64,000 bases of DNA, taken from the NCBI GenBank assembly GCA_001800245.1, contig MGVA01000018.1:12134-76133 (forward strand), read 5' to 3'. Below, one piece after another: positions 1,543 through 28,684 of the stretch. The stretch comes from Elusimicrobia bacterium RIFOXYA12_FULL_51_18 (GTDB lineage: Bacteria > Elusimicrobiota > Elusimicrobia > Elusimicrobiales > UBA9959). The notes below the pieces were generated by a model. The model searched no databases. It saw only the letters and a list, made by a program, of their open reading frames with translations, and had not been told where the DNA came from. The first letter of the stretch is position 1. The number at the start of each line of letters is the position of its first letter. The translations under genes and the position numbers were made by a program.

Positions 1543-1558
1543 GATAGGGCTCCTCTCT

Positions 1559-1822
1559 GTCGCACCCCGCGCTTAACACATGCGCGGGGCGGATTCCCGC
1601 CGGGCCTTTAGCGGAAAGCGGCCCGGTGCTCCCGGAGGGGGATTCCATCCCCCTTCCGCGTTTGCTTCCTTCGCCAAGGCTCAGTCGCCACACTGAACCC
1701 CCTGCTGTGGAAATCTTCCGAATACTAAGGAATCAAATCTTCTTAGCTCTGTCGCACCCCGCGCTTAACACATGCGCGGGGCGGATGACGCCGGGCTTTA
1801 TTAAGGTGGCGCCCGGTGCTCC
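1559..1822 (-). repeat. Hairpin-rich intergenic element, copy 1 (candidate structured RNA or REP-like element)
   Basis: The 36-nt module GTCGCACCCCGCGC-ttaacacat-GCGCGGGGCGGAT occurs at 1559-1594 and 1751-1786, with a partial third unit at 1787-1822. The core is near-identical to the reverse complement of 21907-22130. Confidence 0.8.
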
Positions 1823-16035: not shown

Positions 16036-16064
16036 TTTCCGCGGTCGGCGCGCGGCCGCGGAAA
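16036..16064 (+). terminator. Terminator-like GC hairpin after fprA
   Basis: The stem is ttccgcgg(t)c ... g(g)ccgcggaa. There is no clear T-run. Confidence 0.35.
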
Positions 16065-16078
16065 TATTGTTCGCGCCC

Positions 16079-16107
16079 TTGAATTTGCCGGTTTTGTCTG
16101 CTAGACT
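16079..16107 (+). promoter_or_regulatory. Candidate sigma70-type promoter of cluster gene 1
   Basis: TTGAAT, a 17-nt spacer, then TAGACT. Confidence 0.3.
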
Positions 16108-16193
16108 TTATTTATGGATGCCGCTTTATTTCCCGGTCCTTCTAAAGAGGGCGCGGGGGATAAGGAAGATTGTCTTTTATACATGGGGAATTT

Positions 16194-17477
16194 ATGAGCG
16201 AAAATTCAAACAGTAATAACAGAAGGAAAACACTTGTCACACTCATAGCCGCGTTTCTTCTGATCGGGGGCGGGATTTTTGTTTTTTTTGTTTTCCAGGG
16301 CCTGGGCGATTTAACAAACGATAACAAGAGCGGTTTTAGTTACGGCTTTGCCACGAGAAACGTTTTTATTCCTCTTTCCAATTATTTCAATCTGGGCGAT
16401 AATGATGTCGCGCTGGCCAGGAGAACGGGCGAGAAATTAAAGTCGCCGGAGGACGTGCTGTCTGAAGATCCTTCGGGTGATGTCTCAGATTGGATGGCCA
16501 ATGGGGATGCCGGGAATGAAAGCGAAGGAACCGCGAGTGCTTCTTCCCAGTCTTCCGAAAAGACTTCCATCCCCGCAATTAACGGCGCTCTGAGCGGCAT
16601 GGATGGGGGCGGGGGTGGAGAGAGCCAGTCCTCATTAGGGATTTCGGAACTACCCGACAGGACCGACCGTGACAATGTTAAGATAACCGGGGCGCAAAGT
16701 GGAAGGGGTGGCCTCCAGGGCCGGGGCGTCCCGCAGGGGCGTAGCGGCACGTTTAACTCTCTTAGTACCGCAAGGGCCTCGCTGAGTAAGGGCTTGAAGT
16801 CCGGTTCCGCCATGACCGCCAAGGCAAGTTGGGACCAGGGTTTTGGTGCCGGTGGGGCGGGCGCCGCTAAAAAAGGGGGCGAACTTGCTTATGGCAAGGC
16901 CGGTCTGGTTGGTCTGGACCATATCAAGAGCGGCGATATTTCCGATTTGAAGCTTACCAACGACCCTAAATCGCTTAAAGTAGCCGCCCCCGGCGCGCCC
17001 GTAAGGGACGAAGAATCCGAAGCTAAGGATAAGAAGAATAAGAAGGCGAAGTATGCGGAGAAAGCGATGGGCGCGCTGGTAAAGAAGTTCAACTCCTTGA
17101 ATGAGGATAAAGGTGGGAATGGGGCTGAGGCTGAGGCGCCAAACGCGAACAAGCCGCCCGAGGAGGTTGTTGCTGCGGCCACAACCGAGTCACCCGAAGG
17201 AAGTTATTGTCCCAAAGGCTGCGATGGCGGCACAAACGGCACGTATACCGATACAAAGCTGAGTTATCAGAAAGCGGATGATGGGAAATGGCAGGTTACT
17301 TATGAGGGGACACAGTCGGGGCCGAATTGCAATCCTTCCTGTAAATACAGGGATGAGACAGTGGCTAACCCCGGCGGTAAGCCGCCGGTTCAGCTCGTGA
17401 AATCTTTTATCCAGGATCCAAAGACCGGTAAGTGGGAATGCGCGGTGCCGGGAAGTGTTACTCCCTGCCCAAAATAG
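16194..17477 (+). CDS. Cluster protein 1: N-terminal TM anchor, long G/S/A-rich disordered region, Cys-rich C-terminal module
   Basis: Basic N-terminus NNRRK followed by the TM helix LVTLIAAFLLIGGGIFVFFVF. The last ~95 aa carry 6 Cys. The ORF is open from a TTG at 16170. I recognise no family. Confidence 0.7.
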   Translation: MSENSNSNNRRKTLVTLIAAFLLIGGGIFVFFVFQGLGDLTNDNKSGFSYGFATRNVFIPLSNYFNLGDNDVALARRTGEKLKSPEDVLSEDPSGDVSDWMANGDAGNESEGTASASSQSSEKTSIPAINGALSGMDGGGGGESQSSLGISELPDRTDRDNVKITGAQSGRGGLQGRGVPQGRSGTFNSLSTARASLSKGLKSGSAMTAKASWDQGFGAGGAGAAKKGGELAYGKAGLVGLDHIKSGDISDLKLTNDPKSLKVAAPGAPVRDEESEAKDKKNKKAKYAEKAMGALVKKFNSLNEDKGGNGAEAEAPNANKPPEEVVAAATTESPEGSYCPKGCDGGTNGTYTDTKLSYQKADDGKWQVTYEGTQSGPNCNPSCKYRDETVANPGGKPPVQLVKSFIQDPKTGKWECAVPGSVTPCPK

Positions 17478-17527
17478 CAATAATGGTCGGAGTCTGCGGG
17501 GTCATTTTAGCGTGATTGGCATGGCCC

Positions 17528-17556
17528 TTGACAAGTCAAGGAATTTCTGCTACAAC
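17528..17556 (+). promoter_or_regulatory. Candidate sigma70-type promoter of cluster gene 2
   Basis: TTGACA, a 17-nt spacer, then TACAAC. Confidence 0.3.
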
Positions 17557-17646
17557 ATTATTGTGGTATTCGGCTTCGCCCTGAACTTTTTATAAGATCG
17601 TGTCAGGGGAAGTTTAATGTTCTTTTGCGACTAAGGTGGAACGATT

Positions 17647-18678
17647 ATGATGAAGACGGCCATGATAAAGATGATGGGAAAAAAGACAAAGCCTACGCAG
17701 TATGTAGTCGGCGGCGTGGTGGCCGTCATAATTCTTGGCGCCTGGATATCCATTCCTCTGATGAGCAGCTCCTCGCTGGATTCCCCGGCTGGTTCCGGCA
17801 ATATGTTCAAAACAAAGACCGCGGACGTTAGTTCTCTGGGTAATGATATCCCGTCGGAGGGCGGCGCTCCCGGTTATTCTCTGAGCGGCGAGATGCTGTC
17901 TAATCCCGCCACCTCCGGCGAGAATATCGCCGCCTCCCTTTTTCAGTCCGGTCCGGATGAGGCCGGGTCGGATGAGTCCGGTTTGGATAGCGTGGAGGTT
18001 CCCCCTGATTCCGCTTCAGCCGACGTTGCGGCCCCTCCCTCATATGATTCCGGTTCCGACGCCTCGTACGGGGACTCGGAGTCTTCCGCCGGGGGGGGGA
18101 AACTTAGCGCCATGGCGTCTCTTTCGGGCGGCAATGCCAATTCCGTAACTACCGGCGGGAAGTATGAAAAACCTTTCGGTACCGGCTCCGATAAGGCGGA
18201 TCTGGTCCCTATTTCGGAACAGAGTTTGAAAAATAAAAACATGTCTGCGGCCGAGAAGCGCAAAGCCATGGTGGCTATGCTGCAGAATGCGGATAAGAAG
18301 AGCTCCCGTGCGGCCAGGGCGGCTAATTTCGACGCGGCAGGCAGCGGCGCCAGTTCCGCTTTTGAAAAGATCGCCGGCGGGGCCGGTAATTCGAATCTGG
18401 ACTCCGGAGTGGAGCGCGGAGCGGTCAATTCAGGGCTTGCGCTTGGCGCTGCCGCGCAGAACCTTAAAGCCAACGACCCTTCGCTTAATAAGAATGCCTC
18501 CACGATCCCAGAACCTAAGGCGGCCGCCAAAGACGACTCGGAAGAGGCCGATAAAGCCATGAAGAAAATGTTGCTGGAGATGCTTATGAGCAACGTACTT
18601 GGGCCTATGTTCAGTTCGATGGCCTCCGGTCTGTTCGGCGGTGCGCCTAAGGTGCCGGAAGTGGCCCCGACAAAGTAA
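17647..18678 (+). CDS. Cluster protein 2: N-terminal TM anchor plus S/G/A/D-rich low-complexity region
   Basis: Basic N-terminus, TM helix YVVGGVVAVIILGAWISIPLM and RBS aaggtgga upstream. I recognise no family. Confidence 0.7.
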   Translation: MMKTAMIKMMGKKTKPTQYVVGGVVAVIILGAWISIPLMSSSSLDSPAGSGNMFKTKTADVSSLGNDIPSEGGAPGYSLSGEMLSNPATSGENIAASLFQSGPDEAGSDESGLDSVEVPPDSASADVAAPPSYDSGSDASYGDSESSAGGGKLSAMASLSGGNANSVTTGGKYEKPFGTGSDKADLVPISEQSLKNKNMSAAEKRKAMVAMLQNADKKSSRAARAANFDAAGSGASSAFEKIAGGAGNSNLDSGVERGAVNSGLALGAAAQNLKANDPSLNKNASTIPEPKAAAKDDSEEADKAMKKMLLEMLMSNVLGPMFSSMASGLFGGAPKVPEVAPTK

Positions 18679-18717
18679 TTATTGCCGTTGATGTGATAAT
18701 AAATTTTTGGAGGTGTT

Positions 18718-20322
18718 ATGAGCGAATTTAAAAAAGAAGAAAAGAAAGGCGGTTTCCTGTCAGCCCTTTCAAACCTTTTTGGCGGAGGGTCCTCTGCCGC
18801 CGGCGGGGCCTCCGGTCTTGGCGGGGCCGGTTCCGGCTTTGCCGGGCTTTTTGCGACCAAAGCCGGCATTCTGGGTATGGTGCTTGGCGGCGCAACTATC
18901 GCCGCCGGGGTTGGAGTGGTCTATAATTTTATAGGGCCGGCTTCCACTCCTGTTTATAACCCCCAGCTTTTCCAGGAAACCTATTACGAGGAACAGGCCA
19001 ACAATGCGGGACTGGAGCGCGCCAGGAGTAAAGAGGAGTCGGCGGCTTCAGCTTCCTCAACGCTGGACCTCTTTCGGGAGCAGGCCCAAAAGGAAGGTAT
19101 CGGAGGTTCCGGAGAAGGCGGCGCCGCGGATGGAAATAAGAGTGCCGCGTCCGATGAGCCTGTAGCCGCCGGCGGTAATTCCCCTGCGGCCGCCGAAGGC
19201 AATTCTCCCGCATCAGGCGCCGCGTCCGATTCCGCGCCTAACGCTCCGGCGGGTGCCGCCAAGCTTCAGGCTTCCGCTGGTTTCGGCGACTTTAAAAGCG
19301 GCGGCGGGAGCAATTCAAACTCCCCCAGGCTTTCAGCCGGCGGAGGACTGTCCGGCGGTATCAATGGGCAGTTTGCACCCGTATATAGACCTCCGGTCGG
19401 TAAAAGCCAGGGCGCATCCGGCGCTATGAAAGGGTCCACGGCCACCACTATGAGAAAATCGTCTAAATATGCCGTTAAGACGAAGGGATTGGGCTCTTTA
19501 GCGCAGGCGAAGGGCGCTAATAAAACGGGTGCCAACGCGGTCAAGTCATCCATGGGTGGCGCCCGCACCCTCACTTCCGAAAACTTTGACACCGGGCAGA
19601 CCGGGGGGTCTGGTGAGCTCGGCGCAGGCAACGGCGGCGAGGGGCTGGGGGTCGGGTTGGGCGGCGCCGGTATTTCAAATGCGGATGGGCTGAAGGGCAG
19701 TAATCCTAATGTTAATGACAGTAAATTCACGCCGCCTGAAGTTGAACCGCCCCAAAATGTTTCGCCTTGGACAAAGTACACAGATATGGCCCTGTATGGG
19801 ATGATCGCGGCCACATTGCTGATCACCATTGCCGGTATGCTCACTAAAAGAGCTAAAGCTATGGCCGCCACCGGTAATGTTGGAGCCGCCGCAATGTTCA
19901 TGTATGCCAAGATCGCAGCTTACGCGGCTATGGCCGCCGCGGCAGTGGTCACATTTGCCGGCATAATGCTGATGAAGGGCGATCCAAACGGTGATCCGCC
20001 GTGGGCGGGCCAGAAGTGGACCGGAATGCTATATATGGCCGGCGGCGCCATGCTTATGTATAAAGCCTATCAGGCAATGAGCGGGGCGCATGCAGAGAAG
20101 TTAGAAGTCAAGACAGTGGAGGATGCAGTGCTAAAGGATAATCCCAATGGCTCACTTGATAAACTTTTTAATATGGATAAAATGAAACTGGAGACTCCAT
20201 ATGATAACCTGAATGATAAACCGAAGGGTAAATCGAAGGAAAAGTTCACTTTGGGTAGTGAACCTAAACCTGAGAAGGGATTCACTTTAGGCGAGAGTAA
20301 ACCGCCTGGATTTAGCTTATAA
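18718..20322 (+). CDS. Cluster protein 3: G-rich N-terminus plus TM, disordered middle, Met-rich polytopic C-terminal domain (paralog of protein 4)
   Basis: RBS GGAGG. The N-terminus reads MSEFKKEEKKGGFL...ATKAGILGMVLGG. The motif VSPW precedes three Met/Ala-rich TM helices. Confidence 0.75.
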   Translation: MSEFKKEEKKGGFLSALSNLFGGGSSAAGGASGLGGAGSGFAGLFATKAGILGMVLGGATIAAGVGVVYNFIGPASTPVYNPQLFQETYYEEQANNAGLERARSKEESAASASSTLDLFREQAQKEGIGGSGEGGAADGNKSAASDEPVAAGGNSPAAAEGNSPASGAASDSAPNAPAGAAKLQASAGFGDFKSGGGSNSNSPRLSAGGGLSGGINGQFAPVYRPPVGKSQGASGAMKGSTATTMRKSSKYAVKTKGLGSLAQAKGANKTGANAVKSSMGGARTLTSENFDTGQTGGSGELGAGNGGEGLGVGLGGAGISNADGLKGSNPNVNDSKFTPPEVEPPQNVSPWTKYTDMALYGMIAATLLITIAGMLTKRAKAMAATGNVGAAAMFMYAKIAAYAAMAAAAVVTFAGIMLMKGDPNGDPPWAGQKWTGMLYMAGGAMLMYKAYQAMSGAHAEKLEVKTVEDAVLKDNPNGSLDKLFNMDKMKLETPYDNLNDKPKGKSKEKFTLGSEPKPEKGFTLGESKPPGFSL

Positions 20323-20450
20323 ATGTTTCGTTAAAGAATCTTATGTGGAGATGTATATCATTCGATTTATCTGGTGGGCGGTAAGGTGTGGAAGCGAAAG
20401 ATTGTCTTTGGGATAGGCGCATGTTTTGAGAGTCGTGTATGGGAGGTTAT

Positions 20451-21899
20451 ATGAGTGATTTACCGGAAATAAACTTTAAAGCTAAAGATAAGAAGAAAGG
20501 TTTTCTTCCATGGCTCCGTTCCCGCCTGGGGTTTGGCGGGCGCAGCGCTATGGGTGGCGCCGGTGAAGCCGCGCCGGGAGCCGCTAACTTCGGGCGTGCC
20601 GCTTTCGGCGGCGCTAAACTCGGCGCCGCCTCTTCCGCCGGTGTAGGCGGTTTGCTGGCGAGTAAGGCCGGTATTCTGGCGGCGCTGGTCGTTTCCGCCG
20701 CCTTGGGTACGGCCCTTTACATGAAAAACCAGCCCGAGCCGGGCGTAAGTACGGCGGCTTTCAGTTCAAATAAGGTCCCGGACGAGTATGTCCCGGCTGC
20801 TCTGCGGCAGAAGCAGGATCCGGGCTCCTCGCTTGAGATGTTCAAGGAAACCAATAAAGGGGCTGTAGGCATGGAAGAGGCCGCCCCCAAGGAAGAGGCG
20901 AAGGACTCATCAACGGATCAGCCTGCCGCGGACCAGGAGAAAGCGACGGCGGAGGCCAACACTGCCGAGCCTGCGCCTGAAAATATGGCGAAAGAGATGG
21001 TAGGGAAGCTTGCCGGGGGTAATTTCGGCGGCGGACTTTCAACTACCATGGGCGGCAGCAGCAAATTCAGCGGCATGGGCGGTATCGGAAATAAGTTCAA
21101 TTCCGGCGCTATCGGGGCCAATTCCCCCGGTTTAAGCAATTTAGGCTCCGGTTTTCAGAGCAGCTCCAAATTCGACCAGAGAAAGAAACTGCTGGCCATG
21201 AGGGGTTCTTCCAGGCCGTTGTTTTCGAAAGCCAAGGGGGCCAAGGGTTCCTTCGGCAAAGGTTCTTATGCCCAGGCCAAGGGTTTAAAGGGTATGCAGA
21301 AGTTATACAGCGGGAAGGAAATTGATCCTATGGCCCATACTCAGAATCAGGCATGGACAGGTTCCACCGGCGACGGGAATGCCGCCGGCGGCGCCGGTGT
21401 GGGCGATGGTGACGGCGGGGCCGGCATAGTAACTTCGCCTTCGATGGATAATACCGCCGGCGGAGGCGGAAGCGGCGGGAATACTTCCGATCCGGTCATC
21501 ACAAATCCACCCAGCCCGACCGATGTAAGTCCCTGGAAAGGATTGCCGGAAAAGGCGATGATGTATATAATGCTGGCGGCCATGTTATCGGTTCTTGGCG
21601 CCTATCTTATAAATATGGCTAAGAATCCAACAATGACTTGGCTTGAGCCAGTTGGTAAAGCTATATGTATGGTCGCCATGGGAGTAGCCGCCATGGCCGT
21701 TATGATCGGAGTAAAAATACTTGGTATGGGCCAGTCCATGCTGGGTGCGATCTATACCATAGGCGGCGGTGTTGCCATTATGGGGGCCTTGAAAGCGATG
21801 AGAGCTGAACCGAAAGACGCGATATCTACCAAGGTGCTCTGGATGGCCGGCATTGCCGGTATATTAGCTATGCTTGGAAGCATGATGGGCGGCAAATAA
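20451..21899 (+). CDS. Cluster protein 4: paralog of protein 3
   Basis: RBS GGGAGG lies 4 nt before the ATG at 20451; the ORF is open from 20439. The N-terminus reads MSDLPEINFKAKDKKKGFL...ASKAGILAALVVS. The motif VSPW precedes four Met-rich TM helices. Confidence 0.75.
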   Translation: MSDLPEINFKAKDKKKGFLPWLRSRLGFGGRSAMGGAGEAAPGAANFGRAAFGGAKLGAASSAGVGGLLASKAGILAALVVSAALGTALYMKNQPEPGVSTAAFSSNKVPDEYVPAALRQKQDPGSSLEMFKETNKGAVGMEEAAPKEEAKDSSTDQPAADQEKATAEANTAEPAPENMAKEMVGKLAGGNFGGGLSTTMGGSSKFSGMGGIGNKFNSGAIGANSPGLSNLGSGFQSSSKFDQRKKLLAMRGSSRPLFSKAKGAKGSFGKGSYAQAKGLKGMQKLYSGKEIDPMAHTQNQAWTGSTGDGNAAGGAGVGDGDGGAGIVTSPSMDNTAGGGGSGGNTSDPVITNPPSPTDVSPWKGLPEKAMMYIMLAAMLSVLGAYLINMAKNPTMTWLEPVGKAICMVAMGVAAMAVMIGVKILGMGQSMLGAIYTIGGGVAIMGALKAMRAEPKDAISTKVLWMAGIAGILAMLGSMMGGK

Positions 21900-21906
21900 A
21901 GCGGTC

Positions 21907-22130
21907 ATCCGCCCCGCGCATGTGTTTAGCGCGGGGTGCGACAGGATTGGGATCTGACTCCTTAGTATTCGGGAGATTTCTACAGCAGGGGGTTCAGTGC
22001 GGCGACTGAGCCTTAGCGAAGGAAGCAAACGCGGAAGGGGGACGGAGTCCCCCTCCGGGAGCACCGGACCGATTACCTTAAGAGGTCCGGCGTCGTCCGC
22101 CCCGCGCATGTGTTTAGCGCGGGGTGCGAC
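21907..22130 (+). repeat. Hairpin-rich intergenic element, copy 2 (candidate structured RNA or REP-like element)
   Basis: The 36-nt module ATCCGCCCCGCGC-atgtgttta-GCGCGGGGTGCGAC occurs at 21907-21942 and 22095-22130 and brackets a ~150-nt core containing further hairpins. The element fills the whole gap between cluster genes 4 and 5. Confidence 0.8.
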
Positions 22131-22146
22131 AAAGGCGGGAGGTTGT

Positions 22147-23826
22147 ATGGGAAATAAATTTATAGAACAACACAAGCGAAAGTCCCTGCTTGCCTCGCTC
22201 CTGTTTATGTTCGCGGGCCGGGCCAAATATGTTGTCATAGTTCTGCTTGTTGCGGTTGCCTCCCTGCCTTTTGTGGTTTCAGCCGAAATGGCCGCGAGGT
22301 TTTTTGAGATGCCGCCGGTGGCGGCCGCGCTCCGGATGGTGGGCCTGGGCAGTGTAGTCTCCTCCCTCAACCCAACATATTCCCGCGAATTCGTAAAAGC
22401 GGCCATAGACAAGGCCGCGGCGGATAATAGCGCGCAAGCCTCTTACTGGAGCAGACTTATGGGGGCGGTCCTTCCGTTTGGGACAAGATCCGGCGGAGAC
22501 TCTTCGCTGGCTATGGTAAAGGGCGGAGCGGAAATATTTAAGGGAGGGGCCAGCCGTCCCGGCAAGGTGAAAAGTGCGGTCAGCGTGGAGGATCAGGCCC
22601 GCGGAGAGGGAGCCGATACGGTGGACCTGGATGGCATATTAAACAATCCGGCCGGCGCCGATGGCCGCGGACTTTACGGTGACTTAATGGGAGATAGTTT
22701 GGCGGGCAGGTATTCTTCCGGGGAGAGTGCCGGACCATATGCCGATAAAAACCTGGTCTCCCAGCCCGGAGGTTCGGTCAGCCGCGTGGAAAGTTTATAT
22801 TCCAGCTCTTTTATCAAGGCGAACGACAGAGTTCCGGTGCCCGCCAAGCCCCAGAAGCTCAAAACAAAAATGATGGGCCGCGCTTCCGGATTTTCCTGGA
22901 AAAATGTCGGATATAAGACGAGAAACGCCAAAATGGATGTCAGGCTTAACAGCAAACGACCGATGTTCCAGCTGGCTGAAACTTTCGGCATGACCAGTTC
23001 CGCTTCCCGTGACAAGAATACGGCCCCTGAGTACCAGGCCGCATATACCGGTACCACCTACGACGGCAACGCGGTGAATCTTAATGTGATCCAGACCGAC
23101 GATACCCCGCCGTCTGTTCCCGACACCGGTTTCGCCGGCGACTCGATAAACGGCGCCGCCGACATTCAGCAACGGGCGGAGGACTGCGCGAAGTCGCAGT
23201 CCGTTCAGGGCGCTAAAATGTCCAGCGACGGCGCGGAGATCGACAGGATAACTTTACAGTGGCGAACTCCGCCCAATTGTTACGATGATATCGGTCCGTG
23301 GAATGAAAGCGTGGCCCAGCGGTCAAGATTATGCCGTGATTTTAATAAAAACCAGACTATTCTTGCGGGCGCATGCCAGACCAGCAATACTCCTATGGAC
23401 TGCGGTATATATGAACGGGGTACGAATGCCAACGGCATGATCATAAGCAAATGTAAAAAGCCGAAAGGGAAAGGCAATTTGTTAGCGATGCTGATAGCTA
23501 TTGTCGTGCTTGTGATTCTTGTTCTTACTGGTATCCTCACCCCCTTGATAGCATTTATCGCGGCCATACTTGCGTATATAGCATCTTCCATGCTTGGCGG
23601 TGGCGGAGGTGGTGGAGACAGTGATTCTAAGTATCAGGACAAAACCATGACGGATGGTGATGCCGCGCATGGCGGTGATGCGGGTGGCGATGGTAAAGAT
23701 AGTGATGACAAGGACAAAGACGACGATAAAGACGATGAGGACAAAGGCGACAAGGAAAATGACAAAAACAGTGATGATAACGGCGATGAGGATAGTAACA
23801 ATAACGATAAATTCAAGAAAAAATAG
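22147..23826 (+). CDS. Cluster protein 5: N-terminal TM anchor, disordered region, 6-Cys module, two C-terminal TM helices, poly-Gly and a D/K-rich acidic tail
   Basis: RBS GGGAGG lies before the ATG at 22147. The ORF-track start at 21997 runs through the repeat element and is unlikely. The tail reads GGGGGGGDSDSKYQDK...DDKDKDDDKDDEDKGDKENDK. Confidence 0.7.
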   Translation: MGNKFIEQHKRKSLLASLLFMFAGRAKYVVIVLLVAVASLPFVVSAEMAARFFEMPPVAAALRMVGLGSVVSSLNPTYSREFVKAAIDKAAADNSAQASYWSRLMGAVLPFGTRSGGDSSLAMVKGGAEIFKGGASRPGKVKSAVSVEDQARGEGADTVDLDGILNNPAGADGRGLYGDLMGDSLAGRYSSGESAGPYADKNLVSQPGGSVSRVESLYSSSFIKANDRVPVPAKPQKLKTKMMGRASGFSWKNVGYKTRNAKMDVRLNSKRPMFQLAETFGMTSSASRDKNTAPEYQAAYTGTTYDGNAVNLNVIQTDDTPPSVPDTGFAGDSINGAADIQQRAEDCAKSQSVQGAKMSSDGAEIDRITLQWRTPPNCYDDIGPWNESVAQRSRLCRDFNKNQTILAGACQTSNTPMDCGIYERGTNANGMIISKCKKPKGKGNLLAMLIAIVVLVILVLTGILTPLIAFIAAILAYIASSMLGGGGGGGDSDSKYQDKTMTDGDAAHGGDAGGDGKDSDDKDKDDDKDDEDKGDKENDKNSDDNGDEDSNNNDKFKKK

Positions 23827-23855
23827 GTCGAAAGGCCTATGAAAGACAGGGTCTA

Positions 23856-23896
23856 TTGACACTTGGTTTGACAGGGGATATTAAGTAGAGTATATT
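23856..23896 (+). promoter_or_regulatory. Two overlapping near-consensus sigma70-type promoters upstream of cluster gene 6
   Basis: TTGACA (23856-61), a 17-nt spacer, TATTAA (23879-84). Also TTGACA (23868-73), a 17-nt spacer, TATATT (23891-96). Confidence 0.5.
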
Positions 23897-23935
23897 GTGT
23901 ATCAGGGCGTCTTTTACAGATTTTCAGGAGGTTCT

Positions 23936-26518
23936 ATGAGCAATAACAACGAGGAAGAAAAGCGCGAAGGAACTCCCCCGATTTTGGGCAAGCCGGGAGC
24001 TTCTTTCAAAAAGATTTCCACTTTCGGGAGGTCGCCCGCTTTCTCCAGGGCGGCCGGGAGCCTTATGGATAGGATTAAAAATCTTTCCAAAAAAGACCTG
24101 GCTTTTGTAGCTGTCGGCCTGGGTGTTCTAGTTACGGCGCCTGTGGCCGAGTATATGATGTCTAAACCCGCGGGCGCAGATCTGCTTACGGGAGGTTTCG
24201 GTTCGCGCGCGGAGGCCGGCGGTTCTCTCTACGAACCTGGCATCAACTCTCTAAGCCAGGGTTCTCCGGACGGCACTGGCGAAGTGGTCACGCCTTTAAG
24301 CTCAAGGGACCCCGCGTCCCTGATCATGGGGTCACAGCCTTCCCAGCCTCCGGAAATGCCTCCCCAGCAGCCGGCGCCAAAGACGGACTTCCGGGATTCC
24401 ATGAAGGAATCCGCCCGCAACGCTTTTTCCGAGGCTTCCAAATCCGCCGGCGTTCCCACTGTTATTCCCAGGATGCAGAGTTCGCTCAGAGGCATGGGTT
24501 CTTTTTTTAGCGGCGGTGAAGGCACCAGGACCACCGGCTCTTTAGGCGGTGATAAAATACTCAGTAGCGCCAAAAACGCATCCGGTAAGGCCAATCCGCG
24601 TTCCATGGTGGGCCCCGTGGGAGGCGCCGGGTATAAAGGAGCGTCTTCCAGCCCTAACAGCGCCAGTAAAGGATCTTTAGATAAACTGCGCGCGCAGGCC
24701 AGTAAAGCGGCGAGCAATTTTGATGGCGACAGTTCCATCCGTTCCCTTGATAAAGCCGCGGCTGATTCCGTGGATATCGGGAAAAGTCTCGGCGGCATGA
24801 GCGGGCGTGACGGCGAAAAATACGCGAACCCCACAGGTTCCAACATCAGCGACAAGAGAAGCTTGGGCGGGGAGACTTTGGAGCAGGCCGCTGCCAAGTT
24901 CAGGCAGCAGAAACAGCAGGAATGGGACGAGTATTTAAAGCACGGTATATTAAAAGAGATCACCACGGCCATGGTTAGCGGTTTCACCGGTTCGCTCGGT
25001 AAGTTTATCGGCGGAGTGGCGGACGATCTTACCGGCCAGACCCCGGGCCCCGCTCCCGCCAGTTACTGTTGGTCGCCCAAGGTGAAGCCTAATTCCACCG
25101 ATACGAACGATTGTCTTAAAGGCGTTTTGAAAACGCCCCTCTTCAAAGATAAGGACGGGAAGATAACTTGGAACCCCAATTTTAGTTGCATATGCGGTAT
25201 AGGCGGGGCTCCTGATATCGGTCCGGATGCGGCAGCGGCAGAAGCCGAAGAAATCGTTAACGGAGCCGAAGCCTCCCACGTTTCCATGGCGCTGCCAGAC
25301 ACGGTTCCGGACGGTTATGTGGAAACAATAAAGAATTATGACCAGGCTCTTACCGATATGGCGTTTAACGCCAGGAATGGAGAGAAGGCGTCGGACCCCA
25401 AAATACTTTTGAAATATGTAAAAGCGTTGGGTGACAGCCTGTACAAGTGCTCAAGCCTTGCACAGGTGGTGTATAAAGATGTCAACGTCAAGACCCCGGC
25501 GCTTGTTAATGCGGAAAAGGTTTCCTACCATACCGCCATACTTACGGCGGAAACGAAATTAGCCGGGGTTAGAAATAAATATGACGCTTTCATAGGTAAA
25601 GTGGCTTCGGAAATAGGCAAGTATGAAAGCGGCGCCAAAACGGCCCAGGTGGGGGACGCCGAAGTTGTTCAGGCGGGTAACGGGGTTACTCCGGTGGCGG
25701 TCCTTAAAGCGGTAAAGGCTGAGGCGGAGGACTATCAGAACGGTTCAATAGTCGTGGCTGAGAATAAACTGAAGTTCCATAAGCAAGCCGAGATATTCTA
25801 TGCCGAGCAGTCGGTTTTAATAACCGATAAAGCCGGTAATATGGTTAACGAGGTATCCAAAACTAACGGCAAAGTGGCGGAACTTGTTAAGTTGGAGGGG
25901 ATAACCCCGGATACGGCGGTGCTTCCGGATAATGCGGCTAAAATTAAGGAAACTTTCGCCAGACTTACGGGGCTGAAAGACTCTATCCCTACGGCGCCGC
26001 CCGCCGCTAATTCAGCGCAAGTTGTTCCGGCGGCGCCTAAAGCTCCGGCAACCGGCGAGTCCGATCCGTACATATCCGCGGCCATCAACTGGCGCGGCGC
26101 TGATCCTGATAAGTTGTTGAATAATAATATGGTGGATGACAGCGGTGTTAAAAAAACGGAAAGCGAGTATTGGGCGCCCCTCAGTCCGTTCAAACGTCTT
26201 GAGTCCAGAAAAATAGACGGAGGGTTAAGCCCCGCCGGCGAGATCGGTTCTGATTACGTCACCCTCTCCATACGCGGCGTGCAGGCTCTGCCGTACGACA
26301 TAAAGAGCGCCAATGGCTTGACCGCGGAGATAATGGAGGGAATGGATCAGTTGGATTCCAAAATCGCGGGGTGGAAAACACAGCTCAATGATATCGGCGT
26401 TTCCTTGGATCCGGCGGGCGTAAAACCCTCCGATGCCGCGCAGGTCTCCGGCGGCGGGCAGATCGCCGCCGGACAGGTTGCCGGCGGGCAGATCGCCGCC
26501 GGACCAAAGCCGGAATAG
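23936..26518 (+). CDS. Cluster protein 6: N-terminal TM anchor, S/G/P-rich disordered region, small Cys module, large helical C-terminal domain
   Basis: RBS GGAGG lies 5 nt before the ATG at 23936; the ORF is open from a GTG at 23897. The TM helix is LAFVAVGLGVLVTAPVAEYMM. The product is about 860 aa. I recognise no family. Confidence 0.75.
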   Translation: MSNNNEEEKREGTPPILGKPGASFKKISTFGRSPAFSRAAGSLMDRIKNLSKKDLAFVAVGLGVLVTAPVAEYMMSKPAGADLLTGGFGSRAEAGGSLYEPGINSLSQGSPDGTGEVVTPLSSRDPASLIMGSQPSQPPEMPPQQPAPKTDFRDSMKESARNAFSEASKSAGVPTVIPRMQSSLRGMGSFFSGGEGTRTTGSLGGDKILSSAKNASGKANPRSMVGPVGGAGYKGASSSPNSASKGSLDKLRAQASKAASNFDGDSSIRSLDKAAADSVDIGKSLGGMSGRDGEKYANPTGSNISDKRSLGGETLEQAAAKFRQQKQQEWDEYLKHGILKEITTAMVSGFTGSLGKFIGGVADDLTGQTPGPAPASYCWSPKVKPNSTDTNDCLKGVLKTPLFKDKDGKITWNPNFSCICGIGGAPDIGPDAAAAEAEEIVNGAEASHVSMALPDTVPDGYVETIKNYDQALTDMAFNARNGEKASDPKILLKYVKALGDSLYKCSSLAQVVYKDVNVKTPALVNAEKVSYHTAILTAETKLAGVRNKYDAFIGKVASEIGKYESGAKTAQVGDAEVVQAGNGVTPVAVLKAVKAEAEDYQNGSIVVAENKLKFHKQAEIFYAEQSVLITDKAGNMVNEVSKTNGKVAELVKLEGITPDTAVLPDNAAKIKETFARLTGLKDSIPTAPPAANSAQVVPAAPKAPATGESDPYISAAINWRGADPDKLLNNNMVDDSGVKKTESEYWAPLSPFKRLESRKIDGGLSPAGEIGSDYVTLSIRGVQALPYDIKSANGLTAEIMEGMDQLDSKIAGWKTQLNDIGVSLDPAGVKPSDAAQVSGGGQIAAGQVAGGQIAAGPKPE

Positions 26519-26547
26519 TCAGCGCGAGTCTTTTATTTACGGATCCG

Positions 26548-26582
26548 GCCCCGCGGAGTTAAATCCGCGGGGCTTGTTTTTT
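26548..26582 (+). terminator. Rho-independent terminator closing the cluster
   Basis: The stem is GCCCCGCGGA-gttaaa-TCCGCGGGGC, followed by ttgtttttt. Confidence 0.8.
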
Positions 26583-26691: not shown

Positions 26692-27741
26692 ATGTCCAAA
26701 CCCAACAAATCCGATTATCTTAAAGAAACCGTAAAACATTTTGAGATCACCAGGCATAATGTGACGGCCATGGTGGACGCCATGGACGACATGGCTTTCT
26801 CCGCCAGGGACCTTGCGCGCGCCGCCCGGATATACAATATGATGCTGGCCGATAAAAAATGTTCGGTAATACTTACCATGGCCGGCTCTCTTTTTTCGGC
26901 CGGACTCAAAAAAATAGTGGTGGACATGATACGCAACAACATGGTGGACGCCATAGTTTCCACCGGCGCTATCATAGTGGACCAGGACTTCTTCGAGGGT
27001 CTCGGTTTCAAGCACTATAAGGGAACGCCTTACGGGATAGACGACAATATTCTGCGCGATCTGCACATAGACCGCATCTACGACACTTTTATAGACGAAG
27101 ATGAGCTCCGGGTCTGCGATGATACCACCAAAAAAATAGCCGACTCGCTGGAGCCCAGGCCGTACTCCTCCCGCGAATTCATAGAAGAAATGGGGAGATA
27201 TCTTGCAAAGCACGGCAAAAACAAGGATTCAGTGGTGCTTGCCGCCTACGAGAAGCGCGTGCCCATTTTTGTGCCCGCTTTCTCCGACTGTTCAGCCGGC
27301 TTCGGCATGCTGGAGCACCAGTGGAATAATCCGGATAAACATATGTCCATGGATTCGGCCAAAGATTTCCTGGAACTGACCAAGGTTAAAATAGAGGCCA
27401 GGGACACCGGCATCTTTATGATAGGCGGCGGCGTGCCCAAGAATTTCACCCAGGATACCGTGGTTGCGGCCGACATCCTGGGCAAAGAATGTCCCATGCA
27501 CAAATATGCGGTACAAGTGACCGTGGCGGATGTGCGTGACGGCGCGCTTTCCAGTTCCACGCTTAAGGAAGCCAGCTCCTGGGGCAAGGTCGAGACCACA
27601 CACGAGCAGATGGTTTACTCCGAAGCCACGCTGGCCATGCCGCTCATTGCCGGCTATGGCTATCACAAAGGCGCCTGGAAGAGCCGGAAAGCGAAATGCT
27701 ATTCCGACTTTCTTAATAAGGAACTGGTAAAAGCGTGTTAG
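26692..27741 (+). CDS. Deoxyhypusine synthase-like family protein
   Basis: 349 aa with DHS-family features over the full length (SARDLARAARIYNMM, STGAIIVDQD, GGGVPKNF). Confidence 0.75.
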   Translation: MSKPNKSDYLKETVKHFEITRHNVTAMVDAMDDMAFSARDLARAARIYNMMLADKKCSVILTMAGSLFSAGLKKIVVDMIRNNMVDAIVSTGAIIVDQDFFEGLGFKHYKGTPYGIDDNILRDLHIDRIYDTFIDEDELRVCDDTTKKIADSLEPRPYSSREFIEEMGRYLAKHGKNKDSVVLAAYEKRVPIFVPAFSDCSAGFGMLEHQWNNPDKHMSMDSAKDFLELTKVKIEARDTGIFMIGGGVPKNFTQDTVVAADILGKECPMHKYAVQVTVADVRDGALSSSTLKEASSWGKVETTHEQMVYSEATLAMPLIAGYGYHKGAWKSRKAKCYSDFLNKELVKAC

Positions 27742-27832: not shown

Positions 27833-28684
27833 ATGAAAATGAAAAGCATATTATTCTGCGGCTTGTTTATGGCGGCTGTGAATGCCTCGGCTTATTTTGA
27901 CGGCGGGGCCAATATGACCACCGGGCCTGACGCTTATCGCGGGACCAGGCTGAACCTGGTCATAGGCTCAGGGAATGTCGCGGTTGAGCCTTCCATAGCC
28001 GCTTATACTTCCGACCTCCTGGATCATACTTACCGCACCTATGGACTGCGCGGAGCCTGGGAAGCGGACAAGTACACCGTGGCCGGCGAAGTCGGGGCCA
28101 CCCCTGAAGTCAACGACTATTCCAATAAGTTCGCCGGCGGCGATATAACTTTCTCGCTCACTCCGGGGGAGGGCGGCAAGGCCCGCCTGGCGGGGCCGGG
28201 TTCCCGCAACGTAACCCGCGGCGGCACAGGCGTGACCCGCATCGATGTGGGCGCAGGCCTGCGGCAGACCATGCACGAGTATACCGGCGCCGTCCGCATT
28301 AAAACGGATCAGACTCAGTACTCTCTTTTCGCCGGCGCGAAGGTCCTTATGATAAACCTTTCGGCTTCCTACACCGGTTATAACTATGGGACCCGTAAAA
28401 TAGTGCCGCTCATCAACCCTATCCCCGGGCATAATTTCGTTTACGGAGCCGCTCCGAAGTCCAGCGTTAACACTCGCCTGGACCTTCCCGGAATGCCCAT
28501 GCTCACTCCTTTCGTGGCTTATACCGGCACCAAGTACATGGATAGCGTGCAGGACAGCTCCGCCTACCTGTTCGGGACCTATGTAGACCTGAGCATGGTG
28601 GCGGCGAATGTCAGCTACCAGATATTCGACAGAGGCTCGGCGAGCGTCAGTTTCATCTCGGTAGGCGCCGGCATCAGGTTCTGA
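27833..28684 (+). CDS. Outer-membrane beta-barrel protein
   Basis: Signal peptide MKMKSILFCGLFMAAVNASA, alternating beta-strand pattern, C-terminal ...GAGIRF. Confidence 0.65.
   Translation: MKMKSILFCGLFMAAVNASAYFDGGANMTTGPDAYRGTRLNLVIGSGNVAVEPSIAAYTSDLLDHTYRTYGLRGAWEADKYTVAGEVGATPEVNDYSNKFAGGDITFSLTPGEGGKARLAGPGSRNVTRGGTGVTRIDVGAGLRQTMHEYTGAVRIKTDQTQYSLFAGAKVLMINLSASYTGYNYGTRKIVPLINPIPGHNFVYGAAPKSSVNTRLDLPGMPMLTPFVAYTGTKYMDSVQDSSAYLFGTYVDLSMVAANVSYQIFDRGSASVSFISVGAGIRF

Follow-up and report, generated by a model that had tools for sequence, protein, structure and literature searches.

A collinear cluster of six membrane-anchored protein families found in Elusimicrobiota: a candidate inner-membrane envelope complex

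Introduction

The described systems that come closest to the gene cluster considered here are the TolA and TonB proteins, in which an N-in signal-anchor helix leads into an extended periplasmic region of biased composition and then a distal domain, and the PilN/PilO and GspL/GspM proteins, paralogous N-in bitopic inner-membrane sets with a fixed gene order and conserved cytoplasmic tails that bind a cytoplasmic partner. Further points of comparison are the minor pilins of Tad/Flp systems and the membrane-protein substrates of FtsH, an enzyme that in E. coli needs a cytoplasmic tail as a handle to start pulling on a membrane protein. Here we report an analysis of six consecutive plus-strand genes, labelled P1 to P6 in gene order together with their products, in a 64,000-nucleotide stretch of the groundwater metagenome-assembled genome of Elusimicrobia bacterium RIFOXYA12_FULL_51_18 (assembly GCA_001800245.1, contig MGVA01000018.1, positions 12,134 to 76,133 of the forward strand; hereafter the window). 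An original prediction, made from the letters of the window, saw in this block a co-directional set of membrane-anchored, Gly/Ser/Ala-rich proteins of no recognisable family and proposed a periplasm-spanning or surface scaffold with a TolA/TonB-like architecture. Our own reading, which we hold tentatively, is that the six proteins form a hetero-oligomeric envelope complex that is anchored in the inner membrane, faces the periplasm and occurs in Elusimicrobiota only.

The likeness to TolA and TonB holds for architecture, but both the domains and the partner genes that define those systems are missing. None of P1-P6 matches a TolA or TonB C-terminal domain, there is no Pro-rich rod (Pro content is only 4-6%), six apparent paralogs stand where those systems have one protein, and the compositionally biased region is here the conserved part. 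TolQR/ExbBD and tolB-pal were not found in the inspected parts of the window, namely the genes flanking the block and ten other larger open reading frames (ORFs), whose products are metabolic, regulatory or tetratricopeptide repeat (TPR) proteins. The cluster differs from PilN/PilO and GspL/GspM in having no Pfam or NCBIfam match and no ferredoxin-like fold in the P5 and P6 models or in Foldseek searches with them; PilM, PilQ and secretin genes are not found nearby, and the (pseudo)pilin association of PilN/PilO-type systems holds only in relatives. Those relatives carry head genes with Flp-type (G|QSTVEY) and TadE-type (RGQATTEVVLL) N-termini, as in Tad/Flp minor pilins, but P1-P6 themselves have no class III signal motif and no pilin-family match, and the head genes are absent from the window. 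The relatives also encode an FtsH paralog directly upstream, and P3-P6 have N-terminal cytoplasmic tails of 27-70 residues, as would suit FtsH substrates, although the window has no FtsH-paralog gene. Profiles of the type IV secretion components VirB6/TrbL, VirB8 and VirB10 gave no match, and no VirB4 or VirD4 ATPase was seen in the window or the related loci examined.

Results

Scanning GTDB, with one genome taken per species, with a P6 profile recovered 60 loci, all of them labelled Elusimicrobia or Elusimicrobiota except six labelled only 'bacterium'. The order P1-P2-P3-P4-P5-P6 was collinear in every locus with any match (62/62), 37 of these loci carrying all six genes and the remainder being interrupted by contig ends. 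Median identities of the related proteins to those of the window are 36-46% (36% for P1, n=37 orthologs), and the median spacers in related loci are as short as 21 bp between P2 and P3 and 27.5 bp between P3 and P4. The window proteins match all six family hidden Markov models (HMMs) at E of 1e-118 or better. Homolog clusters of P6, P3 and P5 number about 100-170 each (at least 169 for P3), with all named organisms among them belonging to Elusimicrobia or Elusimicrobiota; the named homologs are annotated as 'hypothetical', except for three P5 relatives whose names refer to generic membrane domains, and the P3 homologs carry no Pfam domains. When the P6 profile was run with HMMER against 1.84 billion representatives it gave 753 matches, including a second tier of proteins of 780-1020 aa; 240 matches were at E of 1e-30 or better, and every organism-named one of these was from Elusimicrobiota.

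Alignment of the family profiles with hhalign shows P2, P3 and P4 to be mutual paralogs at the level of sequence. P3 and P4 align at 100% probability (E 6e-42), P2 and P3 at 96.5-96.9% (E 1e-9 to 1.6e-10), and the P3 HMM itself matches P2 at 9e-8. The remaining links are probable. P1 and the N-terminal half of P6 align at 67-81% (E about 1e-5), colinearly over the stretch between the membrane helix and a SAMTA/SAI.S motif found in both; P4 and P5 reach only 21%, yet their motifs align in order (GF..G.GF with GFSWKNVGY, RPV with RPMFQ, Q.SY.G with EYQAAYTG.TYDGN, and DVSPW with V..WN). A further feature common to P3, P4 and P6 is the N-terminal motif [FY]-N/K-..-EKK-.G, after which comes a short amphipathic helix. 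The block had been rightly described as one co-directional membrane-anchored set, in which this paralogy was missed.

The original prediction called the Gly/Ser/Ala-rich sequence low-complexity and singled out the distal modules as ordered, an emphasis that is reversed by per-column conservation computed across 38-59 species: the Gly/Ser/Ala-rich parts are no generic linkers. Column identity peaks (0.6-0.85) in the Gly/Ser/Ala-rich modules, the N-terminal tails and the membrane helices, and is lowest (0.02-0.3) in the Cys-rich end of P1, the helical domain of P6, the acidic tail of P5 and the tail of P3. Within the conserved segments the best-conserved residue classes are aromatic (0.60), Gly (0.57), Pro (0.54) and Lys/Arg (0.46), and the least conserved are Ser/Thr, Asn/Gln and Asp/Glu (0.31-0.37). 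AlphaFold2 models were made for P5 and P6 from alignments of 85 and 93 sequences. That of P6 is confident for residues ~375-830, with a predicted local distance difference test score (pLDDT) above 90 for ~459-819, which agrees with the distal helical domain that had been proposed; its predicted three-helix bundle has helices 66-77 residues long. In P5 the score exceeds 90 only for aa ~335-440, and the rest of both models lies mostly below 50, with a few isolated helices at 55-80. Most of the conserved Gly/Ser/Ala-rich stretches have pLDDT below 50, so that the constraint falls on sequence to which AlphaFold gives no fold on its own. The G+S+A content of P1-P6 is 31-41%, compared with 21-30% in neighbouring genes, and only 13-34% of their residues are of low complexity by a SEG-like measure.

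Hydropathy agrees with the single N-terminal hydrophobic helix that had been assigned to each protein, and adds C-terminal helices in P3, P4 and P5. The short basic N-termini described earlier are found in P1, P2 and P5, where the signal-anchor helix lies at aa ~15-37, ~18-38 and ~27-46, respectively. P3, P4 and P6 instead begin with conserved cytoplasmic tails of 45-70 residues, comprising ~47 aa in P3 (MN.YN.KEKKGGFLS.LS.LF), ~70 aa in P4 and ~54 aa in P6, with first membrane helices at aa ~48-72, ~72-92 and 55-75. Family-wide, the 15 residues before the first helix of P1, P2, P5 and P6 hold 2.3-4.2 Lys+Arg, against 0.3-2.0 after it. Cys counts are 6 in P1, 6 in P5 and 5 in P6, such that the even counts noted by the original prediction apply to P1 and P5 and not to P6. 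All six Cys of P5 are at least 90% conserved, as are four of the five in P6, a CxC motif among them. The charge bias in four families and the conserved Cys of P5 and P6 favour, without proving, an N-in/C-out orientation with disulfide-bonded distal modules.

Beyond the anchor the proteins differ. P1 has a conserved Gly-rich/basic module at aa ~120-260 (GGGGSKSS, LRSGSAMTAK.KWD.SFG) and a Cys-rich, little-conserved C-terminus. The conserved parts of P2 are a juxtamembrane peptide and a Gly/aromatic module (FFGSG, LKKNDPSL), and it ends in a helix, likewise conserved, of hydrophobic or amphipathic character. P3 has a conserved Gly/aromatic/basic module at aa ~180-345 and P4 a conserved F/G-rich module (KFS.MGGFGNKF...GF), each followed by the Met-rich polytopic C-terminus that had been described (Met/Ala-rich in P3). 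P5 combines its confidently predicted helical hairpin, which holds the six Cys, with a long C-terminal hydrophobic helix at aa ~442-482, a second membrane segment, and the polyacidic tail that had been described; the tail is present but not conserved, at a column identity of 0.02-0.2. The N-terminal half of P6 is highly conserved and has no predicted fold (for example LYEPGIN.LSQGSPDGSGEVITPLSSRDPASLILG), and its distal part, confidently predicted as a 4-Cys beta module followed by the long three-helix bundle, is poorly conserved in sequence. Nucleotide coordinates of these parts are given in Table 1.

The absence of any recognisable family was upheld by every search we made. Searches of P1-P6 against Pfam and NCBIfam returned nothing even with E allowed up to 1, the best hit to PADLOC and PHROGs models was non-specific (E about 0.02), and PDB profile searches with all six family alignments and with that of the downstream protein OMP283 (below) were empty or returned coiled-coil or composition noise. 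Zero Pfam domains were found in 20 diverse P6 homologs and 10 distant P6 relatives. Foldseek searches with the P5 and P6 models against PDB, and with P6 also against BFVD, gave nothing at E below 0.02. The top P6 hits (E 0.04-0.13, target-normalised TM-scores 0.32-0.43) are generic elongated helical bundles, the modelled domain resembling the trypanosome haptoglobin-haemoglobin receptor and AhlC, a soluble protein of tripartite alpha-pore-forming toxins; this is a generic shape resemblance and no evidence of homology. Full-text literature searches returned no description of the cluster. The six protein families are thus outside all described families and folds available to us, and neither a confident profile match to a known system nor a loss of synteny was found.

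More distant Elusimicrobiota loci retain the order P2'-P3'-P4'-P5'-P6'. In two of them (L069 and L070; L numbers denote related loci) a TadG-like gene, a TadE-like gene and an FtsH paralog stand in place of P1, and two further distant loci start with the same FtsH paralog. The TadE-like genes match PF07811 at E 0.0012 and 0.013 and PF13400 at E 0.044, a weak PF04021 match also occurs among the head-module genes, and a 68-aa Flp-like gene (…GQSTVEYLLV…) stands at the front of L070. The FtsH paralog has AAA (1e-37 to 7e-39) and M41 (3e-33 to 9e-36) matches, Walker motifs and HEAGH, two N-terminal helices and almost no periplasmic loop; it is a divergent paralog, since it scores 453-457 bits against TIGR01241, under the equivalog cut-off of 600. 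The absence of ATPases and pilins reported by the original prediction therefore describes the window and not these relatives. A metagenome scan with the TadG-like protein yielded 80 loci, in which TadE nearly always adjoins TadG. The FtsH paralog follows TadE in 29/47 evaluable loci. The ORF that comes next encodes a G+S+A-rich, membrane-anchored protein in 20/25 evaluable loci and is recognised by the P1 or P2 HMMs in six; seven loci contain strings of the type TadG-TadE-FtsHp-P1-P2-P3 or -P2-P3-P4-P5. As far as we found, this trio module, which is widespread in metagenomes, has no prior description in the literature. TadA, TadB/C, RcpA and TadV were not seen beside the head module in the inspected loci, and a six-frame scan for the class III motif in the window and loci L006-L074 found it only in L069 and L070. 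A LuxR-type response regulator lies upstream in L070 and L116. We considered whether the head module belongs to a classical Tad locus and rejected this for L116, where the upstream genes encode two-component regulators and a DsbA-like protein; a relationship between P1 and the TadG- or TadE-like proteins found in its place in relatives was likewise rejected (hhalign probability 0.1%).

Downstream of the P6 relatives, five distant loci (L069, L072, L073, L074 and the P0372 locus) continue with ORFs of ~1100 aa and at least 2500 aa, reaching over 3000 aa. These large ORFs start with Sec-type signal peptides in L069, L073 and L074, the three whose N-termini were read, and the largest have a weak match to ResIII, a superfamily 2 (SF2) ATPase domain, by Pfam scan in L073 and L074 and by precomputed annotation in L072. 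A loose parallel is offered by the giant-gene loci of Omnitrophota, which are reported to adjoin GspD/E/F-type secretion genes as well as genes whose products have class III signal peptides (bioRxiv 10.1101/2023.11.21.568195); the same paper groups ultra-small-cell Omnitrophota with Elusimicrobiota. The likeness, confined to our distant relatives, lies in large signal-peptide proteins with an SF2/DEAD-type ATPase match beside class III genes, but GspD/E/F-type secretion genes were not seen in the P-cluster loci. As a separate observation, a gene for a PDZ and Peptidase_S41 protein (a C-terminal processing protease) adjoins a P1-like gene in L071 and L116, and may process P1-like proteins.

OMP283, encoded downstream of P6, represents a putative and apparently undescribed outer-membrane barrel family. 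All 22 sequences that were aligned keep its signal-peptide-like N-terminus and ...GAG.KF end, the last Phe being invariant, and neither Pfam nor PDB gave a match. OMP283 lies downstream of P6 in 46 loci, less than 200 bp away in 19, at a median identity of 57%, and is usually followed by dnaX-recR-comEC. OMP283 also adjoins the P6-like genes of L006, where the locus shows no detected P1-P5 homologs.

The same six ORFs were recovered at the starts given by the original prediction, and public gene calls on this DNA have identical coordinates, except for the upstream P4 start (Table 1). As had been stated, each gene is preceded by a good ribosome-binding site, here of GGAGG type, and both hairpins that bound the block are present in the terminator scan. 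The flanking genes are a mur ligase (murC/mpl), thiS and fprA on one side and a deoxyhypusine synthase, OMP283, dnaX, recR and comEC on the other. Over-prediction of the ORFs is ruled out by conserved length, order and sequence in more than 60 genomes, and a mobile or defence island by the stable housekeeping synteny. The P5-P6 spacer is the longest within the cluster in related loci (median 330 bp, minimum 132; spacers in L007-L067) and, because it contains a near-consensus promoter match in the window, P6 may have its own promoter or regulatory leader.

Several side observations concern individual positions in the cluster. The structured repeat previously placed at 21907-22130 is real: it is a ~225-bp intergenic element between P4 and P5 with a second, minus-strand copy elsewhere in the window (2 occurrences against 0 expected by chance), its ends being two direct 35-nt copies of CCGCCCCGCGCATGTGTTTAGCGCGGGGTGCGACA, each itself a hairpin. 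The element looks like a dispersed insertion of the miniature inverted-repeat transposable element (MITE) or repetitive extragenic palindromic (REP) kind; an Rfam scan of the block, including this element, gave no match, and the spacer that holds it has a median of about 100 bp in related loci. Four related genomes have, between P4 and P5, an inserted gene for a ~455-aa protein that contains a radical S-adenosylmethionine (radical-SAM) CxxxCxxC motif (GCPGQCTFC) and may be an accessory modifying enzyme. Upstream of the P6-like gene of L072 stand a gene annotated as B12-binding radical-SAM and genes for an acyl carrier protein (ACP) and a ketosynthase. Some lineages have tandem pairs of P6-like genes, of which one is shorter (480-557 aa) in L006 and L067, the L006 copy lacking the distal domain; the L006 pair adjoins OMP283 and dnaX, and a P2'-P6' cluster headed by the FtsH module is found on another contig of the same metagenome (L070). 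The window carries an inserted deoxyhypusine-synthase homolog between P6 and OMP283; in other genomes this place is taken by Sel1-repeat genes or left empty.

Table 1. Coordinates of the six genes, their parts and associated features (window positions, unless a related locus is named)
Feature	Position	Strand	Remarks
P1	16194-17477	+	427 aa ORF
P2	17647-18678	+	343 aa ORF
P3	18718-20322	+	534 aa ORF
P4	20451-21899	+	482 aa ORF; alternative start 20439, used in public gene calls
P5	22147-23826	+	559 aa ORF
P6	23936-26518	+	860 aa ORF
P3 polytopic C-terminus	19786-20082	+	aa ~357-455
P4 polytopic C-terminus	21555-21890	+	aa ~369-480
P5 helical hairpin	23137-23466	+	aa ~331-440
P6 N-terminal half	24161-25045	+	aa 76-370
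P6 distal part	25058-26425	+	aa ~375-830
G+C-rich hairpin after fprA	16036-16064	+	12-pair stem, no strong T-run; upstream block boundary
Intrinsic-terminator-like hairpin	26547-26574, T-run to 26584	+	11 pairs, 9 G-C; downstream block boundary
Sigma-70-like promoter match upstream of P6	23868-23896	+	TTGACA-17-TATATT, 11/12 positions; consensus match only
~225-bp element	21909-22131	+	between P4 and P5
~225-bp element, second copy	1558-1784	-	
Deoxyhypusine-synthase homolog	26692-27741		PF01916, E 7e-95
OMP283	27833-28684	+	283 aa; signal-peptide-like N-terminus, beta-signal-like ...GAG.KF end
Radical-SAM-motif insert	L019 6523-7881; L029 6519-7895; L042 6589-7953; L045 6222-7589		between P4 and P5
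Tandem P6-like genes	L006 8400-13051; L067 9431-14626; L068 6981-12009		
TadG-like/TadE-like/FtsH-paralog trio	L069 693-4018; L070 628-4175; L075-L154		
PDZ and Peptidase_S41 gene	L071 894-2072; L116 13563-14684		adjoins P1-like gene
Large downstream ORFs	L069 12803-22442; L073 12935-22640; L074 8791-18676; L072 12799-22679		

Discussion

We regard co-assembly of P1-P6 into one envelope complex as the best explanation of the cluster because of its fixed order, tight spacing, single-copy diverged paralogs and conserved modules that do not fold alone. All six products would have arisen by duplications of one gene and would share a common plan, comprising a conserved cytoplasmic tail with a basic cluster and a short amphipathic helix, an N-in signal-anchor helix, a juxtamembrane peptide, a variable acidic/Ala/Pro spacer, and a conserved Gly/aromatic/basic module that closes with an LK.NDPSL-like motif and a Pro-rich stretch. 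Beyond this module P2, P3, P4 and P5 are predicted to re-enter the membrane, and P1 and P6 to carry a fast-evolving distal domain, which in P6 would be a long three-helix rod with a disulfide-type Cys module. The conserved modules may be surfaces for co-assembly of the six, or for partner binding, at the periplasmic face of the inner membrane, and the variable distal domains would then point outward, possibly to the putative barrel OMP283. In sister lineages the FtsH paralog, with intact ATPase and protease motifs, could engage the cytoplasmic tails for assembly, processing or turnover of the subunits, and the ancestral or fuller system may have combined pseudopilin-like subunits with an ATP-driven FtsH-type enzyme. 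A periplasm-facing scaffold is thus the most economical version of the structure originally predicted, given the charge bias, the Cys, the P6 rod and OMP283; there is no sign that it spans the periplasm. What the genes and models lead us to infer, rather than show, is the complex itself, its place in the periplasm, its contact with the barrel and whatever part FtsH plays.

A number of observations weigh against this interpretation. The charge bias is neutral around the first helix of P3 and P4, so that the positive-inside rule, from which an N-in anchor had been derived for all six, supports it for P1, P2, P5 and P6 only, and the four conserved Cys of P6, the CxC included, might instead bind metal in the cytoplasm. 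The conserved modules have no predicted structure and their co-folding is a guess. Scores from hhalign between compositionally biased families may be inflated, the weaker ones especially. Among the candidate partners, the Tad-type Pfam matches of the relatives fall under curated cut-offs, and neither the window nor any of the 60 closest loci has FtsH-, TadE- or Flp-like genes. OMP283 shares synteny with dnaX-recR-comEC as well, and in the window a strong terminator and the deoxyhypusine-synthase homolog separate it from P6; for these reasons its link to P6 may reflect inherited synteny rather than function.

Other explanations have to be set against the same evidence. Tandem paralogy, shown for part of the set, would also be expected if P1-P6 were duplicates acting alone, as adhesins, envelope stress or hydration proteins, or binders of peptidoglycan or lipopolysaccharide, with no obligate complex; the fast divergence of the distal domains resembles that of surface-exposed proteins, and P6-like genes occur without detected P1-P5 nearby (L006) or with only divergent P4/P5-like ORFs (L068). 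We nevertheless think this unlikely: a strict order, one copy per paralog and very short spacers are kept across lineages at 30-45% protein identity, a pattern typical of co-assembled subunits and not of redundant duplicates, and each paralog retains distinct conserved motifs. A somewhat stronger contender, though still an improbable one in our estimate, holds that the P proteins, in a role like that of PilN/PilO or GspL/GspM, are the alignment sub-complex or inner-membrane platform of a device of Tad-pseudopilin type by which very large proteins are exported or anchored, with energy from an FtsH-type AAA+ enzyme encoded elsewhere in the genome. It would account for the Flp-, TadG- and TadE-like genes and FtsH paralog that directly precede the cluster in distant relatives, for the large signal-peptide proteins that follow in L069, L073 and L074 and the same-size ORFs in L072 and the P0372 locus, and for the upstream LuxR-type regulators, and it has an analogy, though only that, in the Omnitrophota giant-gene loci beside secretion genes. 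However, the examined parts of the window hold no pilin motif, ATPase, secretin, platform protein or giant gene, the inspected loci lack TadA, TadB/C and RcpA, the Tad matches are below threshold, and FtsH is a protease and no known filament motor.

Two further proposals address the conserved segments and the neighbourhood. The Gly/Ser/Asn-rich segments with Phe/Tyr/Trp and Lys (GFG, FFGSG, KFS.MGGFGNKF, GLFGG) might stay disordered and form an inner-membrane-anchored cohesive periplasmic gel, a matrix or selective meshwork in the manner of phenylalanine-glycine (FG)-repeat nucleoporins. We give this little credence. The segments remain at pLDDT below 50 despite deep alignments, but low scores are equally expected of segments that fold only in a hetero-complex, and the motifs are single-copy and position-specific with no repeats. 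Aromatic, Gly, Pro and Lys/Arg residues are indeed the best conserved within them; since ordinary folded proteins show the identical ranking, it does not discriminate, and we dropped this sticker-and-spacer pattern as evidence for a gel. We know of no bacterial precedent for such an FG-nucleoporin-like gel. Less probable still is that the six are lineage-specific bitopic proteins of division or elongation whose tails bind a cytoskeletal partner, as in FtsN, ZipA or RodZ-like proteins. The tails are conserved and the neighbourhood is a housekeeping one, with murC/mpl upstream in the window and L007 and dnaX-recR downstream, yet the upstream neighbours differ between genomes, Pfam and NCBIfam revealed no SPOR, LysM, POTRA or other division domains, and the partners in relatives are pseudopilin-like genes and FtsH rather than division genes.

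Beyond the six-protein complex itself, we entertain a wider and more doubtful possibility, that P1-P6 are the core of an undescribed, Elusimicrobiota-only envelope machine, in which the conserved segments co-fold or form a cohesive periplasmic phase, and whose fuller form is coupled to Tad-type pseudopilins, an FtsH-family unfoldase/protease and giant exported proteins; these very small bacteria might use such a machine to attach to other cells or to attack them. The phylum Elusimicrobiota is widespread, very few of its members are in culture, and next to nothing is known of its cell biology. As the cluster is single-copy and collinear everywhere it was recovered, with 240 P6 clusters and no database match, it is a strong candidate for a lineage-defining envelope structure. 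The pseudopilin-like genes, private FtsH paralog and giant exported proteins of its relatives provide concrete candidate partners. Its most conserved parts are sequences of the kind usually dismissed as low-complexity linkers, which makes the cluster a test case for conserved 'disordered' segments outside the cytoplasm.

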